DNA of 64,000 nt from an uncultured Chloroflexia bacterium (GCA_963763775.1 CAVXPZ010000003.1:480001-544000); one strand, 5' to 3'; positions 37,862 through 48,193 are shown, numbered from the stretch's first letter. Notes: generated by a model from the letters alone, not told the origin. Program-made: numbers and translations.

Positions 37862-37960
37862 ATGGCGCGCCCGACAGGTGTTGGAGCGCGATCTGCAACC
37901 TACACCATCCCGATCGAGGGTCGCGATGAGTGGCTGGCCGCGGCGAGGCGCCTAGCGTGA
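37862..37960 (+). other. att-spanning peptide module, copy 1 (MARPTGVGARSATYTIPIEGRDEWLAAARRLA)
   Basis: Homologous to 43150-43248 with mostly synonymous differences. Confidence 0.7.
37863..37878 (-). repeat. att-like duplication of the tRNA-Arg 3' end (distal copy)
   Basis: TGGCGCGCCCGACAGG identical to 48118-48133 and 43151-43166. Confidence 0.9.
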
Positions 37961-38328
37961 GGCATCGCCCCGCCGTGTGCGCGACCGACCGGGAGGTCGT
38001 CGTCGTGGCCGCGGTCCTCGAGTCCGGGTCGGAGAAGGCGGCCGCCCATCGCCTCGGCCTGTCACATTCCACGGTCAAGCACCACCTGGCGAATGCGTGG
38101 TCGGAGGTCGGAACAGAGACGACGACGCAGCTCGTATGGATCCTGGTTCCTGGCCTGCCGGAACCGGAGGGCGGGAGTCGACGGAACGTGTCGCGGTCGG
38201 AATCGGGTGTCGCAATATGGAACGATGCCGCGCGACCTGCCCTCATAGTGTCGAATGCGGCCGCCGGCCGCGACACAGTGGGACATCGCAATGCAGCGCG
38301 ACCTCGTCCTCCGCGCGGCGACCGGTGA
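37957..38328 (+). CDS. Small LuxR-type HTH protein (3' end uncertain, possibly degenerate)
   Basis: TDREVVVV...SEKAAAHRLGLSHSTVKHHLANA; GTGA-coupled to the tail peptide. Confidence 0.6.
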   Translation: MRHRPAVCATDREVVVVAAVLESGSEKAAAHRLGLSHSTVKHHLANAWSEVGTETTTQLVWILVPGLPEPEGGSRRNVSRSESGVAIWNDAARPALIVSNAAAGRDTVGHRNAARPRPPRGDR

Positions 38329-38846
38329 CCACGACGCGTTCGCGTCGCTGGCGACCGGTGCCTACGAGCGGCTCCACCGAACCGCGCAGCTGATCCTCCG
38401 CCGCGAGGACCTTGCGTCGGACGCCGTCCAGGAGGCGCTCACCTCGGCGTGGCTGCACATCCGGGCCGTCCGTGACCCAGACCGCTTCGACGCCTGGCTC
38501 AACCGCCTGGTCGTGCGCGCCTGCTACGAGGAGCTCCGTCGAGCGAAGCGAAGGCCGATCCAGGTCCGCGTGGACTTGCTCGAGGGACCGGGGGTCGAGG
38601 ATTTCGACCGTGGCTCTCGCGGATCGGGACCAGCTGGAGCGCGGCTTCCAGCACGTCTCCGTCGACCATCGAGCGGTCCTCGTGGTCCACCACTACTTGG
38701 GACTGGCGGACGCTGATGCCGCGGTAGTCCTGGGCATCCCCATCGGCACCTACAAGTCCCGTCTCAATCGCGCCCACCTCTCGCTGCGCGCGGCCCTCGA
38801 GGCCGACGCCCGCGTGGCCGGGATCGGCCAGGAGTCCATCGCATGA
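38291..38846 (+). CDS. ECF sigma factor (frameshift at ~38605)
   Basis: GDHDAF, DAVQEA, FDAWL (region 2); LGIPIGTYKSRLNRA (region 4); GGAAC-N18-CTCA upstream. Confidence 0.87.
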
Positions 38847-40090
38847 CTGCCCAGAACGACCTCGACCGGGCCCTCGGCGCGTGGCTCCACGGGGACGCCA
38901 CGACCGCGCCACCGCCCGAGCCCCTGGCTCGAGCGATCGAGTCGACCCGCCACCTCCGCCCACGGCCCGCCCCCGTCGCGCGGATCGGCAGCTCCTGGGT
39001 CGGGTCGGGCGAGAGCAACCGCGTCCTCAGCGGTATCCGCGGCCTTCGGCCCGCTCTTCTCGTCGCGCTCGTCGCGCTGCTCGCCCTGGCACTCGTCGGC
39101 GGGGCCCTTCTGGTCGGGGGCCGGCTACTGCCTCGCCCGCCCGCGCCGCACGCGTACGCGGACCGGTTCGCGTCGTTGCCCGATCTGCCGACGCCGGTTG
39201 GCTCGCCGATCGTCGTCGAGCTCCAGGACGGCCGCGTCCTGGTCGTCGGGAGCATCTTCGGGCTGACGCCGTTCGTGTACGACCCGACGACGAGCACGTC
39301 GGTGGCGACCGGCCCGGTGCTGTCGGCGGACGGCATCCTCGGCAATGCGGTCCGCCTTCGCGACGGGCGCGTCCTCCTCACGGGGGACGGGGTCTCCCAA
39401 GTGTTCGACCCCGCGACGATGTCGTTCGCACCGACCGGGCCGATGGTGACGGCGCGCTCGTTCCCGATGCTCGCGACGCTGCCCGACGGACGGGTGCTCG
39501 TTGCCGGAGGCGTTCAGCCCGGGACCGACACGCGGATCCACTCGGCGGAGCTGTTCGACCCCAAGACGCTGACGTTCTCACCGACGGGCTCGATGGCCTA
39601 CGACGCCGGCGACCTCGTCACGTTGCCAGACGGCCGGGTCTTCGTCGCCTCCAGCCCCAACGCCGAGATCTACGACCCTCGGTCCGGGACGTTCGCCTTC
39701 GCCGGTGTCCTCCCGAACGGTGTCACGGGCGCGACCGCCCTCCCCGATGGCCGCGTCGTGCTCGTCGGGGTCTTGAGCGTCACGGGGATGCAGTCCAACG
39801 GCTTCGTCGGGGTCTGGGACCCGGCGGGATCGACGTACCGGGAGCTGTGGGGCGGATCTCAGTCGCATCCGCTCTGGAGCGCGAGCACCCTCGACGACGG
39901 CCGAGTCCTCGTGACCGGTGGGCGCCCAGCCGCCTGGGCCGGTGTCCTCGATCCGGCGACCGGGCAGATGAAGCCGGTCACGCCGCCAGCCTGGAGCCGG
40001 CCCACGGTCACGCGACTCTCCGATGGCAGGGTGCTGATCGTCGGCGGGATGGACGACGGCGCCGGATCGACCGTGCAGGTCTTCCAGTGA
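38843..40090 (+). CDS. Single-TM protein with Kelch/beta-propeller repeats, putative anti-sigma factor
   Basis: Repeated LxDGRVL(V)xGG...AE(L/I)(F/Y)DP units; ATGA-coupled to the ECF sigma. Confidence 0.8.
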   Translation: MTAQNDLDRALGAWLHGDATTAPPPEPLARAIESTRHLRPRPAPVARIGSSWVGSGESNRVLSGIRGLRPALLVALVALLALALVGGALLVGGRLLPRPPAPHAYADRFASLPDLPTPVGSPIVVELQDGRVLVVGSIFGLTPFVYDPTTSTSVATGPVLSADGILGNAVRLRDGRVLLTGDGVSQVFDPATMSFAPTGPMVTARSFPMLATLPDGRVLVAGGVQPGTDTRIHSAELFDPKTLTFSPTGSMAYDAGDLVTLPDGRVFVASSPNAEIYDPRSGTFAFAGVLPNGVTGATALPDGRVVLVGVLSVTGMQSNGFVGVWDPAGSTYRELWGGSQSHPLWSASTLDDGRVLVTGGRPAAWAGVLDPATGQMKPVTPPAWSRPTVTRLSDGRVLIVGGMDDGAGSTVQVFQ

Positions 40091-40148
40091 ACCTGCTCGG
40101 TCACTGTCGCGACTACGAGCGGATCGCCGCGGCCTCGCGGCTCCGCGC

Positions 40149-40325
40149 ATGAGGGACGGTCACTTGCGGGGCTCGCTGACCCGACCCGCAACGCAGTCCC
40201 AGATGGATGTGCTCGCGGCCTTCGTCGCTGCAGGAGGATCGGTCCAGGGCGCCGGCGAGCTCGTGGGCATTCAACCAGGCGGCCGTGCACAGACCCACGA
40301 CGCAACTGGCACTCGGCCGAGGTAG
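40149..40325 (+). pseudogene. Truncated copy of the small HTH gene at 43245
   Basis: MRDGHLRG...QMDVLAAFVAAGGSVQGAGELVGIQP versus MRDGYQRG...QMDVLAAYVAAGGSVHDAADLVGIRP; similarity ends before the recognition helix. Confidence 0.75.
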
Positions 40326-43149: not shown

Positions 43150-43248
43150 GTGGCGCGCCCGACAGGTGTTGGACGCGCGATTTCAACCTACACCATCCCG
43201 ATCGAGGGGCACGACGAGTGGCTGGCCGCTGCTAGGCGGCTGGCATGA
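43150..43248 (+). other. att-spanning peptide module, copy 2 (VARPTGVGRAISTYTIPIEGHDEWLAAARRLA)
   Basis: Homologous to 37862-37960; stop overlaps the ATG of the HTH gene (ATGA). Confidence 0.7.
43151..43166 (-). repeat. att-like duplication of the tRNA-Arg 3' end (middle copy)
   Basis: TGGCGCGCCCGACAGG. Confidence 0.9.
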
Positions 43249-43493
43249 GGGACGGGTACCAGCGCGGGGTGCTTCCGCCGCAGGCGACGCGGCGCCAGAT
43301 GGACGTGCTTGCCGCCTACGTCGCCGCCGGCGGGTCGGTCCACGACGCGGCCGATCTCGTGGGTATCAGGCCCAGCACCGTCAAGCGGCACCTCGCCGAC
43401 CTACGAGCGCGGTCGGGACTGACGACCGAGCAGCTGATCTATTCGGGCCGCGCCCTTGGTTGGCTCGTCGTCCCGAGCCTGGAGCCAGCGTGA
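43245..43493 (+). CDS. Small LuxR/sigma-region-4-type HTH protein
   Basis: TRRQMDVL...AADLVGIRPSTVKRHLADLRARSG. Confidence 0.75.
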   Translation: MRDGYQRGVLPPQATRRQMDVLAAYVAAGGSVHDAADLVGIRPSTVKRHLADLRARSGLTTEQLIYSGRALGWLVVPSLEPA

Positions 43494-43585
43494 TCTCTTG
43501 GATGCAGGCTGAGCCCCCGCGCGCGACCCCGAGTGCCCATCGCTCGCTCAAGCCGGACTATGCGCCAACCACTCTCGCTCCGCAG

Positions 43586-44293
43586 TCAGGCCGTGCCGAT
43601 GGGATCGGCACGGTCGGGCGACGCCCGGAGGCTGTCCAGACCGGCGAGGATCAGATCGAGACCGAAGTCGAACTCGCTGGCGAAGTCGTAGCCGGCCTTG
43701 CCCACGTGCTCGGCAACGGACTCGGCGAGGTAGGGATAGTCGTCAGCGGGGAACTGGCTGAGGATCTCGATCGCCAACTTGTCGACCTGGTCCGTGCTTT
43801 CGAAGGGCAGGGTCTGCTCTTGCAGCGCGAAGCCGAAGATGAAGCTGTCGAGCAGGGTGAAGGCGTGAACGGCCATCGCGACGGAGAAGCCAGCCTGCCG
43901 CAACGCCCCTATCACCATGTCGTGGTATCGCATGTTGCCCGGGCCTGGATGGACGCGGGACTGGATCACCCCCAGCGCCCAGCGGTGACGCGCGAGCACT
44001 TCGCGGATCGAGTTGGCTTGCTGACGCATCGCCCCTTTCCAGTCTGACCCTCCGGCGGTGACGTCGATCTCCTCGTACATCACGTCGACCATCGCGTCGA
44101 GCAGATCGTCCTTGTTCGCGAAGTGGTTGTAGAGCGCCATGGGGTATACCCCCAGCTCCTGGGCGACGTTCCGCATGCTGAGCGACTCGATCCCGCCTTC
44201 ATCAGCGAGCTTGATGGCCGTTCGGAGCACTCGCTGCCGGCTGAGTGGGACTCGTCGTCTGGTCCTCGATCGTTGCTTGACAGACATTTGCAT
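43586..44293 (-). CDS. TetR-family regulator (TetR_C type)
   Basis: LSRQRVL...LSMRNVAQELGVYPMALYNHFANKDDL; FDFGLDLIL. Confidence 0.92.
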   Translation of the reverse strand: MQMSVKQRSRTRRRVPLSRQRVLRTAIKLADEGGIESLSMRNVAQELGVYPMALYNHFANKDDLLDAMVDVMYEEIDVTAGGSDWKGAMRQQANSIREVLARHRWALGVIQSRVHPGPGNMRYHDMVIGALRQAGFSVAMAVHAFTLLDSFIFGFALQEQTLPFESTDQVDKLAIEILSQFPADDYPYLAESVAEHVGKAGYDFASEFDFGLDLILAGLDSLRASPDRADPIGTA

Positions 44294-44312
44294 CCCTCTC
44301 GGCACCTGGGTC

Positions 44313-44370
44313 TTGACGTATGTACGCTGTACATCTAATGTACGCCGTATTGGCGATGTACGCCGTACAT
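44313..44370. promoter_or_regulatory. Three tandem palindromic operators (18-bp period) with TTGACG -35
   Basis: ATGTACGCTGTACAT (44320), ATGTACGCCGTATTG (44338), ATGTACGCCGTACAT (44356). Confidence 0.8.
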
Positions 44371-44385
44371 TAGCAGGAGACCACC

Positions 44386-45414
44386 ATGAAGGCAATCGTT
44401 CAACCAACCTATGGCTCACCCGATGACCTGCAGCTGCGCGACATCGACCAGCCCACGATCGGCGACCACGACGTGCTGGTGCGCGTGCATGCCGCGTCGG
44501 TCAACACCGCCGACCGGCTCATCCTGCGCGGCCGCCCCTATCTGATGCGCGCCGCGGGCTCCGGACTCGGCTTTAGCCCGCGTCGACCCCAGTTCGCCGT
44601 CGCGGGCACGGACCTCGCCGGTCGTGTGGCGGCGGTAGGCAGTCTGGTGACCGCCTTCCGCCCCGGCGACGAGGTGTACGGGAGCGTCCCCGGCGCGATC
44701 GCGGAGTACGTCGCGGCGCCGGACACCGCCCTGGCGGCCAAGCCGTCGAGCCTCAGCTTCCAACAGGCCGCCGCGATGCCGCTGGCCGCGCTCACCGCAC
44801 TCCAGGGGCTTCGCGATGCCGGACAGGTCCAGCCCGGGCAGCGGGTTCTGATCAATGGGGCCTCGGGCGGCGTCGGCACCTATGCGGTGCAGATCGCCAA
44901 GGTCCTGGGCGCCGAGGTGACCGCGGTGACCAGCGGCCCGAACGTCGAGATGGTTCGATCACTCGGCGCCGACCACGTCATCGACTACACCAGCGAGGAC
45001 TTCACGGAGTCAGCCAGTCGGTATGACGTCATCCTGGACCTTGTGGGCAACCACTCACTGTCGGCTCGACGACGCGCGCTGACCGCGACGGGCACGCTGT
45101 TGCTGTCATACGTCGGTACCAACCGCTGGGTGGGGCCGTTCGGTCACATCCTGGCTGCCGTGGTGCTGACGCGGTTCACGAGCCACAGGATCGTCTCGTT
45201 CACGACCGCTCCGAGCAGTGCCGACCTGCTCGTCCTTGCGCAGCTGACAGACGACGGAAAGATCGTGCCGGTCATCGACCGGACCTACCGCCTCGACCAA
45301 GCAGCCGAGGCGATCCGCTACCTGGAACTCGGACGTGCCCGGGGCAAGGTCATCATCAGCATCAGCGACCGCGGCGCGCTGGCCGCGCTGACGCCGGCGA
45401 GTGTGGCGTCGTGA
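44386..45414 (+). CDS. NAD(P)-dependent MDR oxidoreductase (quinone reductase-like)
   Basis: VRVHAASVN, GTDLAG, INGASGGVG, GADHVIDY, GKVII. Confidence 0.9.
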   Translation: MKAIVQPTYGSPDDLQLRDIDQPTIGDHDVLVRVHAASVNTADRLILRGRPYLMRAAGSGLGFSPRRPQFAVAGTDLAGRVAAVGSLVTAFRPGDEVYGSVPGAIAEYVAAPDTALAAKPSSLSFQQAAAMPLAALTALQGLRDAGQVQPGQRVLINGASGGVGTYAVQIAKVLGAEVTAVTSGPNVEMVRSLGADHVIDYTSEDFTESASRYDVILDLVGNHSLSARRRALTATGTLLLSYVGTNRWVGPFGHILAAVVLTRFTSHRIVSFTTAPSSADLLVLAQLTDDGKIVPVIDRTYRLDQAAEAIRYLELGRARGKVIISISDRGALAALTPASVAS

Positions 45415-46067
45415 CGGCGCCAGCGATGCCAGTGGGGCCGTACGCGGCTCGTCTGACCATTGACTACCCCGAACGCCTTGATCGGGTCACGACCTTCTTT
45501 CGCCTGATCTGGGTCATACCGATCGCCATCGTGCTCGGAGTGATCACGGGGAGCGGGACCCAGATGATGGTCACCGCAGCCGGTGAGCAGATCGTCGGAG
45601 CCGGCGGTGGACTGCTCGCTGGCTTGGCTTTCGCCACGGCGCTGATGATCGTCATCCGCATGCGCTACCCGCGCTGGTGGTTCGACTTCGCACGGGAGCT
45701 GACCCGCTTCGGCGCCCGCGTCGGTGCCTACGTGGCCCTGCTCACGGACCGATATCCGTCCACTGTCGAGGAGCAATCGGTGCACCTCGAGATCGAGTAT
45801 CCAGAGGTCGATCGCGACCTGAACCGCTGGCTTCCACTGGTCAAGTGGTTCCTGGCGATCCCCCATTACGTCGCGCTGATCGTCCTGATCATCGGAGCGG
45901 CCCTCGCCATCGTGATCGCCTGGTTCGCGATCCTCATGACCGGGCGTTATCCCCAGCCGCTCTTCGACTACGTGGTCGGCGTCGGGCGGTGGAGCCTGCG
46001 CGTGAACGCCTACGCGTTCCTGCTCGTGACCGACCGCTATCCCCCCTTCAGCCTGAAAGCAGGGTAG
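45411..46067 (+). CDS. DUF4389-type membrane protein
   Basis: Internal duplication RYPxxxFD...R...AY..LLTDRYP. Confidence 0.8.
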   Translation: MTAPAMPVGPYAARLTIDYPERLDRVTTFFRLIWVIPIAIVLGVITGSGTQMMVTAAGEQIVGAGGGLLAGLAFATALMIVIRMRYPRWWFDFARELTRFGARVGAYVALLTDRYPSTVEEQSVHLEIEYPEVDRDLNRWLPLVKWFLAIPHYVALIVLIIGAALAIVIAWFAILMTGRYPQPLFDYVVGVGRWSLRVNAYAFLLVTDRYPPFSLKAG

Positions 46068-46069
46068 TC

Positions 46070-47227
46070 ATGCGAATCCTCCGAGAGCTCTCGCGGCGCA
46101 AGCTGCGCACGAGCCTGACCATCACCGGCATCACCATCGGCATCTGGGCACTCGTGGTGTTCAGTTCGCTGGCCAACCAGATCAACGGCCTCGTCGGCAT
46201 GGGCAGCGAATACTTCGCCGACAAGATCGTCGTCACCGACGGCGTGGCCTTCGGCTCGTCGCCGATGCGCCTCGACGACGTCGAGATCATCGCCGGCCTC
46301 GACGGCGTCGGTGCCGTCCAGCCCAAGGTCGAGATCCCGTGGGACCCCGATCCCGCTATCGGGTTCGGCGCGCCGGACTTCCTGGTCGGGACCATCCCGG
46401 GCGCCGACGCCGGGTTCGAGACGTTCACACCCGAGCTGGCCACGGGACGCCAGCTCATCGCCGAGGACACCGGCAACGTCGTGGTCCTGGGGTCGACCAT
46501 CGCCCGCAAGTACGGCGTCGTCGCCGGCGGGACGGTCGACATCCGAGGCGAGTCCTTCGAGGTCCTTGGGACCCTGCAACCCACCCTCAGCACGCCCGAC
46601 ACGAACGGCTTCATCCCGCTCTCGACGGCCCAGGCGCTGTACCTGGGCGACCTGCCCCCACTCGTCGCCGAGTCGCTCCAGGCGGACGAGCTGGCCAACC
46701 AGATCGTCGTCTTCCCCGAAGTCGGTGCCGACCCGACGACGGTGGCCGCGGCGATCGAGGCCGCGGTCGAGAACAGCGCGACCATGACCGGCGCCGAGTT
46801 CTCCAAGACGGTCGGCGCCACGACCGTGATCTTCAACGCGATCATCATCGGGGTGGCCGCCATCAGCCTCATCGTGGGCGGCCTGTCGGTGATCAACACG
46901 ATGGCCATGAGCGTGGCCGAGCGGACCCGCGAGATCGGCATCCGGCGGGCCATCGGCGGCTCCCGGCGACGCATCGTCCGCGAGCTCGTCGCCGAGGCCG
47001 GGGTCATCGGGCTGCTGGGCGGCCTGATCGGGCTCGGCCTGGGCGCTGCGGTCGTCGTCCTGGTCAACGAGGCCGGCCGATCGAGCGGCACCGTCCTCTT
47101 CGACCTCACCGCACAGACCGCGGCGTTCGCGGTCGGCTTCAGCACGATCCTCGGGATGGTGGCCGGGATCATCCCGGCCTGGACTGCCGCACGGCTCGAC
47201 CCGGTGTCGGCCCTGCGCTACGAATGA
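46070..47227 (+). CDS. MacB/FtsX-family ABC permease
   Basis: RKLRTSLT, NTMAMSVAERTREIGIRRAIG, LDPVSALRYE. Confidence 0.9.
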   Translation: MRILRELSRRKLRTSLTITGITIGIWALVVFSSLANQINGLVGMGSEYFADKIVVTDGVAFGSSPMRLDDVEIIAGLDGVGAVQPKVEIPWDPDPAIGFGAPDFLVGTIPGADAGFETFTPELATGRQLIAEDTGNVVVLGSTIARKYGVVAGGTVDIRGESFEVLGTLQPTLSTPDTNGFIPLSTAQALYLGDLPPLVAESLQADELANQIVVFPEVGADPTTVAAAIEAAVENSATMTGAEFSKTVGATTVIFNAIIIGVAAISLIVGGLSVINTMAMSVAERTREIGIRRAIGGSRRRIVRELVAEAGVIGLLGGLIGLGLGAAVVVLVNEAGRSSGTVLFDLTAQTAAFAVGFSTILGMVAGIIPAWTAARLDPVSALRYE

Positions 47228-47256
47228 CCAACGACCGAACGACGAAGGAGCGAACG

Positions 47257-47979
47257 ATGAACCTGATCGAAGCGACCGACCTGCGCAAGACCTACCGGCT
47301 GTCGCGCCGGACCAGCATCGATGCCCTGCAGGGTGTTGACGTCAGCATCGCCGCCGGCGAGATGGTGGCGATCATGGGGCCGTCAGGCTCCGGCAAGAGC
47401 ACGCTCATGCACCTGCTCGGGCTGCTCCACGCGCCGGATACCGACGACGGCCCGGCCCCGACCCTGCGCATCGATGGGGTCGATGCGACGACCCTCTCGG
47501 ACGGCGAGCGAACGTCCATCCGGGCTCGATCGATGGGCTTCGTGTTCCAGTCCTTCAACCTGGTCCCGACGCTCACCGCCGAGGAGAACGTGGCCCTCGC
47601 CGCCGAGTATGCCGGGACGTCCGGTTCGGCAGCCCGTGTGGCTGCGCGCGCCTCGCTGGCGTCGGTCGGCCTTGCCGAGCGAGCGGGGCACCGGCCGATG
47701 GAGTTGTCAGGGGGCGAGCAGCAGCGCGTGGCCATCGCCCGTGCCCTCGTGAACGACCCGAAGCTGATCCTCGGTGATGAGCCGACGGGCAACCTGGATT
47801 CATCCCGGGCCGCGGAAGTCCTGGGCCTGCTCCGTCGCTTCAACCGTGAGCGCGGGCAGACCGTGCTCATCGTCACGCACGACCAGGAGGTTGGCGCCGC
47901 CTGCGACCGGATCATCCGGATGCGTGACGGGCGGATCATCGCCGACGAGCGCGTGGCGGACCTGCAGGTTGCCGCATGA
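47257..47979 (+). CDS. MacB/LolD-family ABC ATP-binding protein
   Basis: GPSGSGKST, GFVFQSFNL, LSGGEQQR, DEPTGNLD. Confidence 0.92.
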   Translation: MNLIEATDLRKTYRLSRRTSIDALQGVDVSIAAGEMVAIMGPSGSGKSTLMHLLGLLHAPDTDDGPAPTLRIDGVDATTLSDGERTSIRARSMGFVFQSFNLVPTLTAEENVALAAEYAGTSGSAARVAARASLASVGLAERAGHRPMELSGGEQQRVAIARALVNDPKLILGDEPTGNLDSSRAAEVLGLLRRFNRERGQTVLIVTHDQEVGAACDRIIRMRDGRIIADERVADLQVAA

Positions 47980-48182
47980 CGGCCGGAACGATGCGCGATC
48001 TGATGCACGCCATCTACGACCGGATCACGGTCGCCGGCCCGGTGATCGTGGGTGTCCGGCTGACCCAGGCGGCCTACGCGCACGGATTGGCGCTGGCTCT
48101 GCCCGAAAGGGTTGAAATGGCGCGCCCGACAGGACTCGAACCTGCGACCTTTGGGTCCGGAACCCAACGCTCTATCCACTGA
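47976..48182 (+). pseudogene. Short ORF reading through att into the tRNA antisense; probable C-terminal remnant of the element recombinase
   Basis: DLMHAIYDRITVAGP...LALALPERVE-MARPTG-LEPATFGSGTQRSIH; in frame with the att-spanning MARPTG; recombinase identity is inferred, not shown. Confidence 0.5.
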
Positions 48183-48193
48183 GCTACAGGCGC
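48118..48193 (-). tRNA. tRNA-Arg(CCG)
   Basis: GCGCCTG acceptor stem, TAGCTCAGTGGATAGAGC D-arm, TTGGG-TTCCGGA-CCCAA anticodon arm, GGTTCGAGTCC T-arm, encoded CCA. Confidence 0.97.

Follow-up and report, generated by a model that had tools for sequence, protein, structure and literature searches.

A tRNA-Arg(CCG) island in an uncultured Chloroflexia bacterium holds the relic of a large serine recombinase gene from a family that probably carries its attachment site in its own last codons

We asked why a short open reading frame (ORF) in the genome of an uncultured Chloroflexia bacterium runs through a putative attachment (att) core into the antisense of a tRNA-Arg(CCG) gene, and what it means that the same frame is taken up again at the other end of a 5-kb island. 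The window, that is, the whole stretch of 64,000 nucleotides (nt) analyzed here (GCA_963763775.1 CAVXPZ010000003.1:480001-544000), is part of contig C3 of a 3.3 Mb assembly in four contigs, rated 87% complete, and has a G+C content of ~70%. A 16-nt core, TGGCGCGCCCGACAGG, constitutes the last 16 nt of the tRNA gene in plus-strand writing and has exact copies at 37863, 43151, and 48118. ORF 47976-48182 crosses the third copy in frame (...LALALPERVE-MARPTG-LEPATFGSGTQRSIH, then a stop), and a tail in the same frame follows the copy at 43151; both translations came out as claimed by the first-pass annotation, which had been made from the sequence alone. The best explanation, in which we have high confidence, is that the locus contains a relic island of a family of large serine recombinases (LSRs) whose attachment site lies in the last codons of the recombinase gene itself. 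The following features carry the argument.

43150-43248, plus strand: native C-terminal tail of the LSR, in frame with the core (VARPTG-VGRAISTYTIPIEGHDEWLAAARRLA, then a stop).
43151-43166, plus strand: core copy 2, where the 5-kb island begins on its left side (central GG at 43165-43166).
43167-43188, plus strand: putative right (P') half-site, the inverted counterpart of 48096-48131, with matches at 19 of 26 positions about the central GG.
43245-43493, plus strand: helix-turn-helix (HTH) gene of 82 amino acids, type 1, whose ATG overlaps the tail stop (ATGA).
47976-48182, plus strand: ORF of 68 codons, in which codons 8-47 (47997-48117) correspond to the last LSR codons and are followed by the core and 15 tRNA-antisense codons.
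48096-48117, plus strand: putative left (P) half-site beyond the core, where the LSR remnant has its 3' end.
48118-48133, plus strand: core copy 3, the functional tRNA 3' end, with its central GG at 48132-48133.
48118-48193, minus strand: tRNA-Arg(CCG), the integration target (ARAGORN).

We searched 1.84 billion representative proteins with the 53-residue peptide of ORF 47976 and obtained 384 matches at E ≤ 0.001, 107 of them at E ≤ 1e-10. Most matches are short proteins with the matching stretch near the C-terminus. One of them, P0142 (407 residues), scores 23.4 bits for the Resolvase family against a cut-off of 23.3, and protein P0067 runs unbroken from the ORF-like stretch via ARPTG to an end in ...PIEGRDERLAAARRLA. 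With P0142 as the query, matches are present in 70 of 121 genomes of the genus. Five distinct loci in the genus (G111, G061, G098, G007, and G100) have 481-530 open codons before the core, and each of them reads through it to end with ...RSIH inside the tRNA. The LSR of genome G098 (500 residues) matches Pfam Resolvase (PF00239, E 1.6e-11) and, over residues 10-456, the PHROG phrog_95 'integrase' (E 2.4e-40), together with weak NCBIfam matches to CcrB, XisF, and CcrA. An R-E-S-T-x-G-Q stretch near residue 23 is invariant in 41 sequences.

The fold points to the same enzyme class. We modeled P0199, a family member with the native tail, using AlphaFold2; a 65-row alignment gave a mean predicted local distance difference test (pLDDT) score of 81.3, and a 22-row alignment gave only 46. 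Foldseek ranks serine integrases at the top for this model (9y66, 9dxh, 9dxd, PhiC31, Bxb1, and 4kis; E 7e-15 to 1e-7); the three top structures align over 508-520 columns (E 7e-15 to 2e-14). Long paired helices are modeled at residues 371-417. In a sequence search against solved structures, the N-domain of TP901-1 was the sole match. Because of the peptide matches, the Resolvase domain of the full-length relatives, and the fold match, ORF 47976 can be assigned as the 3' relic, the last ~41 codons, of an LSR gene; LSR homology begins at codon 8 (47997). The first-pass annotation had proposed a remnant of a site-specific recombinase beside the tRNA, and it had suggested a search for full-length homologues. 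The proposal stood up to peptide search, Resolvase, phrog_95, and Foldseek alike, and the search returned recombinases of ~500 residues that read through the same core into tRNA-antisense ends.

Using the G098 LSR as the query, we found 540 proteins at E ≤ 1e-10, some of them titled 'recombinase family protein [Candidatus Limnocylindrales bacterium]'. Among the best 120 of these 540, tRNA-antisense codons (FEPATFGSGGRRSIH/R or LEPATFGSGTQRSIH) form the end of 75 and the PIEG tail that of 19. Another 8 have other ends, and ARPTG is missing from the last 60 residues of the remaining 18, of which several run into other tRNA-like ends. The tRNA-antisense ends represent the integrated form, and the conserved-tail ends represent the free or tandem form. 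Thus, the claim that an att core lies inside the recombinase frame, so that integration exchanges the C-terminus, is borne out by the five genus loci and by the 75 versus 19 proteins among the best 120. A quite different continuation of 70 residues (VGRATQGPEARESS...) follows the core at the 3' end of the LSR in locus L034 (G078:C6, position 2509), and likewise in protein P0091; this continuation would be a second kind of partner arm.

An intact element of 13.3 kb in G098 shows both ends, and its LSR is the only recombinase found in it. The order is tRNA, LSR, a 62-residue ORF, a PD-(D/E)XK nuclease, a primase-polymerase/AAA_25 protein, a ParB-like protein, and an HNH endonuclease, followed by cargo genes, an amidase, the HTH gene, the tail, and the core. 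The 62-residue ORF upstream of the LSR has a generic HTH match below the cut-off in Pfam and nothing specific in PHROGs or NCBIfam. The same element carries a streptomycin adenylyltransferase family gene (L052 10268-11161; PF04439, E 2.6e-38) beside an Lnt-like gene. A pattern scan of metagenome contigs returned at least 600 stretches, at least 525 of which encode relatives, and 80 loci were kept. These include 69 native-tail junctions; LSR sequence lies directly upstream of the core in 60 of the 69, with at least 470 open codons in 8. Locus L100 (19 kb) has a single native-tail site, a full-length LSR gene across that site, and no tRNA, which fits a non-integrated form. Two IMG/VR contigs with native-tail LSRs carry a methylase, a tyrosine integrase, and a peptidase, and no virion genes were found by Pfam among 10 neighboring proteins. 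In L103 (6470 and 13707) and L095 (11440 and 18677), two inverted attP-like sites lie ~7.2 kb apart. A full-length LSR gene runs across one of them and a remnant across the other; the LSR could invert the segment between the sites.

We then interrogated the junctions for the symmetry of a serine-integrase site. For each trial center, the 26 nt to its left at the tRNA junction were compared with the reverse complement of the 26 nt to its right at the 43151 junction. A dyad around the GG at core positions 15-16 matches at 19 of 26 positions in the window and at 18 of 26 in G098, and other trial centers reach at best 10-11 of 26. The site thus appears to have the anatomy of a serine-integrase attP, with an LSR-type dyad around a central GG, which is where the crossover would take place. 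The 14 core nucleotides left of the GG are both part of the half-site shared with the tRNA and the piece that rebuilds the tRNA.

The tail beyond the core is conserved well outside this genome. Core-plus-tail DNA is matched in 82 of 131 genomes of the genus. Past the cores at 43151 and 37863 the tail has 26 residues, and 8 of its last 20 codons are not the same in the two copies: 7 changes are synonymous, at third positions, and 1 is non-synonymous (H/R), exactly the count given by the first-pass annotation. We collected 30 distinct sequences in which the core is not followed by the tRNA and analyzed the 19 that have exactly 32 codons and an IEG motif; the other 11 were set aside, six because they are 33-34 codons long and five because the frame is shifted or the sequence unrelated. 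Beyond the 22-nt half-site, variable sites number 7 of 19 at first, 7 of 19 at second, and 16 of 19 at third codon positions. The ratio of non-synonymous to synonymous variation (pN/pS) is 0.24 in the LSR frame and 1.14, 2.37, 1.51, 0.37, and 3.17 in the other five frames; since the 19 sequences are related, it serves as a description and not as a test statistic. The length variants differ by whole codons. In a larger set of 106 distinct tails, 66 have 26 residues, and in these the VGRA, TY, and PIEGRDEW-AAA blocks are 80-95% conserved. These patterns show that the tail is under purifying selection and conserved as a peptide, in line with the selection proposed in the first-pass annotation.

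The small HTH gene is coupled to the tail by its start codon. The overlap is ATGA at the 43151 copy and GTGA at the 37863 copy, and one of these two forms is present at the tail stop in 23 of 24 distinct junctions of the genus. Among the metagenome junctions, 63 of 69 have a start-stop overlap, and in 45 of these 63 the overlapping ORF has one of two HTH motifs. The overlap noted by the first-pass annotation is thus borne out at most of these junctions. The HTH proteins have only LuxR/GerE, LysR, and PucR HTH matches below the cut-off in Pfam, and nothing specific in PHROGs or NCBIfam; the excision or maintenance role that the first-pass annotation gave to the HTH is speculative.

The arrangement that we favor, and consider very probable, is as follows. 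The attachment site lies 26-27 codons before the LSR stop and consists of two inverted half-sites of ~22 nt around the central GG; most of the left one is formed by the 14 nt at the end of the tRNA. When the element is free, its LSR ends in the conserved tail, with the stop overlapping the start of the small HTH gene. Integration at the GG in the T-stem of the tRNA would regenerate the tRNA and leave the LSR at one end of the element, finishing in 15 tRNA-antisense codons, with the tail and the HTH gene at the other end. The 5-kb island would have been moved by the LSR of a related element.

A bolder proposal, which comes from the first-pass annotation and which we hold only tentatively, is that the layout is a working switch: exchange of the C-terminus would alter the stability or directionality of the enzyme, separation from the HTH gene would alter its regulation, and the integration state would thereby feed back. 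Selection on the tail and the retention of the start-stop overlap in 23 of 24 and 63 of 69 junctions speak for it, as does the last tail residue, which is Ala in 102 of 106 distinct tails, with an LA or SA end in 82 of 106. In addition, 75 of the best 120 relatives are intact integrated-form genes, so the tail-swapped enzyme is kept intact. Precedents are described for tyrosine enzymes, in Mx8 (PMC6070905) and in integration-dependent immunity (PMC3694055). In the P0199 model, residues 490-496, whose codons span the last part of the core and the first part of the right half-site, have pLDDT below 50, and in the tail a strand (497-501; block pLDDT 84) precedes a helix (507-517; block pLDDT 69); the model is used here for confidence and secondary structure only. 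This speaks for a folded terminal element on a flexible linker, and a folded piece of the enzyme fits it better than a free degron does. A C-terminal degron role is kept as possible because the terminal Ala is invariant, but the Ala codon is entangled with the overlapping start codon, which makes the invariance ambiguous.

In a related view, the swap of the 26 C-terminal residues would itself sense the state of the element, so that directionality would be set partly by the state of the DNA and not only by a separate directionality factor. Native-tail enzyme would then come from the free element only, be co-translated with the HTH protein, and perform integration; tRNA-tailed enzyme would come from the integrated element only and have altered stability or synapsis preference. 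We regard this, too, as doubtful. In either version the switch could at most be a property of the family, since the window has no catalytic part: the N-terminal resolvase catalytic domain is present in the full-length relatives and missing here, where only the last ~41 codons are left. Resolvase (PF00239) and Recombinase (PF07508) domains were not found anywhere in the assembly of this genome. With no LSR catalytic domain in the genome, no switch operates here, and the excision considered in the first-pass annotation would join the tail to a fragment, not to a functional recombinase.

It is very improbable that the frame through the core is fortuitous and that the stretch behind it is conserved as DNA, either as a recombinase binding arm or as an HTH promoter, and not as protein. 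The first 22 nt past the core are indeed a half-site and constrained as DNA, and within them variation is seen at 5, 3, and 5 of 7 sites for the first, second, and third codon position, with no concentration at third positions. Beyond the half-site, however, it is mainly third positions that vary, and no other frame has as low a pN/pS as the LSR frame; the antisense frame with the same wobble positions reaches 0.37, not lower than the LSR frame. Tail length variants keep the frame, and full-length proteins that carry the tail exist in nature. DNA-only conservation of the tail region is thus largely refuted.

We also examined how the 5-kb island itself is distributed. The proximal island (43151-48117) keeps both complete half-sites and contains, between the type-1 HTH gene and the LSR remnant, the TetR, dehydrogenase, DUF4389, and ABC transporter genes only:

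43586-44293, minus strand: TetR-family regulator, cargo.
44386-45414, plus strand: zinc-type dehydrogenase/oxidoreductase, cargo.
45411-46067, plus strand: DUF4389 membrane protein, cargo.
46070-47227, plus strand: putative ABC transporter permease, cargo, identified by where it lies and by the look of its sequence.
47257-47979, plus strand: ABC transporter ATPase, cargo, whose stop overlaps the ATG of ORF 47976.

The island is 98.6-99.5% identical in six genomes of other species that show both junctions (G022, G135, G091, G044, G141, and G060). The 300-nt flanks of the island in these genomes are 54-61% identical, the level of unrelated sequence, with the exception of the left side in G044, where part of the neighboring segment is duplicated with the island in tandem. 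Further out, the chromosomal flank in G060 is 75-79% identical, and in G022 the tRNA-Arg(CCG) body that the island adjoins has 6 differences over 60 positions. A seventh genome, G119, is 99.5% identical over 4.9 kb, and its contig stops before the tRNA. In the G044 tandem (L091, G044:C4, 6002-16709), two island copies follow each other; where they meet, a mutated LSR remnant reads across the core into a tail of another type. The genome studied here has a second, inverted copy outside the window (C3:1-4912, 99.0% identity), in which the reading frames of the ABC permease and ATPase are broken. Contig C3 begins inside the att core of this copy, so the assembly probably broke at the island repeat.

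Metagenomes extend this distribution. At least half of the island's sampled words occur in 20 metagenome runs, mostly labeled soil or rhizosphere, and 22 runs that contain a stretch of the island come from 14 studies. In contigs from four soil and rhizosphere runs, identity starts at 43151 in 4 of 4, with different sequence in front; the internal contig joints, whose sides are shorter than 30 letters, were disregarded. In one contig (X7), 14 letters of the left half-site precede 43151 and the end of the LSR remnant leads straight into the tail, a junction that would be compatible with a circle and a tandem array alike. The island behaves as a non-autonomous element would, and it seems still to move between soil bacteria, or to have done so recently. 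Because it is near-identical in other species between unrelated flanks, mobilization in trans by the LSR of a related element is suggested; it may also have moved as part of a composite. Both att sites are kept, and recombinase and transfer genes are lost, as in a cis-mobilizable element (CIME).

Three junction remnants are present in the window, at 37863, ~40112, and 43151, and only the last is intact. The older ones comprise the following features:

37863-37878, plus strand: outermost core copy (displaced tRNA 3' end, exact match), the attR-type junction of the oldest island.
37879-37960, plus strand: decaying right half-site and LSR tail copy 1 (VGARSATYTIPIEGRDEWLAAARRLA, then a stop), with the stop overlapping a GTG start.
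37957-38328, plus strand: LuxR/GerE-like HTH gene of a second sequence type, coupled to tail copy 1.
40112-40283, plus strand: third junction, badly decayed and without a core, with the tail end and the N-terminal 45 codons of a type-1 HTH gene.

The first-pass annotation had read the tail at 37863 as a parallel copy. Its tail end and the GTGA overlap hold, but the first codons past the core had to be corrected: they read VGARSAT, versus VGRAIST, through two compensating frame slips, and this copy appears to be already decaying. No LSR remnant is present at the right end of segment 37863-43150. As part of the same well-supported explanation, the window shows an integration hot spot at tRNA-Arg(CCG), where at least three decayed integrative elements, all from the same family, are stacked. 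Outside the window, at C3:6729 on the minus strand, another core copy is joined to 8 more tRNA nucleotides of the 'ATTCGAAC' variant. Behind it, in a different frame, comes a sequence that resembles the tail but has diverged (...PIEGAGEW...), and the whole may be what is left of a related element whose tail is of another type. Within the window, an ECF-type (extracytoplasmic function) sigma factor frame at 38255-38846 is split in two (38255-38716 and 38412-38846), which looks like a frameshift or sequencing error; next comes a 415-residue protein in which a 'DGRVL' unit is repeated (38843-40090).

Tyrosine integrases are the enzymes of most tRNA islands (PMC4383910) and this genome has PF00589 genes, yet we give almost no credence to ordinary tyrosine-integrase islands, or to a vertically inherited chromosome with duplicated tRNA fragments that have nothing to do with the LSR remnant, given that all six PF00589 matches lie on contig C1 and none near the window, the sequence adjoining the tRNA is an LSR 3' end, the LSR is the only recombinase found in the intact G098 element, and the island is 98.6-99.5% identical between unrelated flanks in the six other species' genomes.

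Several points weigh against the explanation by a self-splitting LSR gene and a mobilized island. The full-length relatives score 18.1-20.5 bits for Recombinase (PF07508), under the cut-off of 21.1, and have no match to a Pfam zinc-ribbon family. No terminal overlap of at least 15 nt, as expected of closed circles, was found in the 80 metagenome loci, and unbroken LSR-core-tail junctions arise in tandem arrays as well as in free forms, as in G044. No full-length LSR was found in the island-bearing genomes included in the LSR search, whose assemblies are 59-87% complete, so the helper LSR is hypothetical. All genomes are metagenome bins, in which a repeat common to co-occurring species can give chimeric joins. 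Finally, the position of the crossover is placed by symmetry alone, and recombination at this site is a prediction from sequence.

How does this layout compare with known systems? The target of Mx8 is a tRNA gene. In Mx8, attP lies inside int and integration makes a new 3' end, so that the C-termini of the free and integrated forms differ (PMC6070905), and the integrases of Mx8 and SSV are described as extending across attP (PMC4383910). The family studied here shares with Mx8 an attP inside the integrase coding sequence and a new 3' end upon integration. However, Mx8 Int is a tyrosine recombinase with another mechanism and site structure, whereas here the enzyme is an LSR with a short dyad site and the exchanged piece is only 26-27 residues; because the enzyme is a serine recombinase, the likeness to Mx8 and SSV is one of analogy and not of homology. 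With PhiC31, Bxb1, Listeria LI/A118, and TP901-1 the family shares an N-terminal resolvase domain, a whole-length fold match, and a short site of imperfect inverted half-sites around a non-palindromic central dinucleotide. To our knowledge, classical large serine integrases target protein genes or intergenic DNA and have attP outside the int gene. Here, in contrast, the target is a tRNA 3' end and the site lies in the enzyme's own last codons.

According to one account, only tyrosine integrases, and not serine integrases, are known to target tRNA genes (PMC4383910). Another describes serine-recombinase integration into tRNA genes as rare, listing phiRSM1 at tRNA-Ser and eight Mycobacterium actinomycete integrative and conjugative elements (AICEs) at tRNA-Leu (PMC3218068). 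The present family resembles these in its target; the enzyme of phiRSM1 is resolvase-like, and PMC3218068, in the portion consulted, makes no mention of a site inside the recombinase gene. In the mycobacteriophages BPs and Brujita, attP is reported to lie inside the repressor frame, and integration removes a C-terminal segment that is a proven degradation tag (PMC3694055). The likeness is an attP in a reading frame and the removal of a C-terminal segment by integration; the difference is that the split gene there encodes a repressor, the enzyme is a tyrosine integrase, and the tag is proven, whereas here the recombinase is split and the HTH gene stands intact beside the site. CIMEs are described as having lost their integration genes while keeping attL and attR, with accretion in tandem at the target gene (PMC5704250). 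The island is like them in its lost recombinase, its retained att sites, and its position in tandem with decayed elements at the target gene, but the cases described there use tyrosine integrases of integrative and conjugative elements in Firmicutes, and mobilization here is suggested by near-identity. In the literature listings and passages covered, no description was found of a serine integrase gene that spans its own attP.

Serine integrases are major genome-engineering tools, and their directionality is thought to depend on separate accessory proteins. The layout described here is widespread; in this window it is present as a relic only. The small ORF at 47976-48182 is what is left of the recombinase gene, and the 5-kb island appears to spread without a recombinase of its own. 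A large LSR family that docks on a tRNA gene and, in doing so, would rewrite its own C-terminus offers new short tRNA-based landing sites and a simple, testable case of self-sensing recombination.

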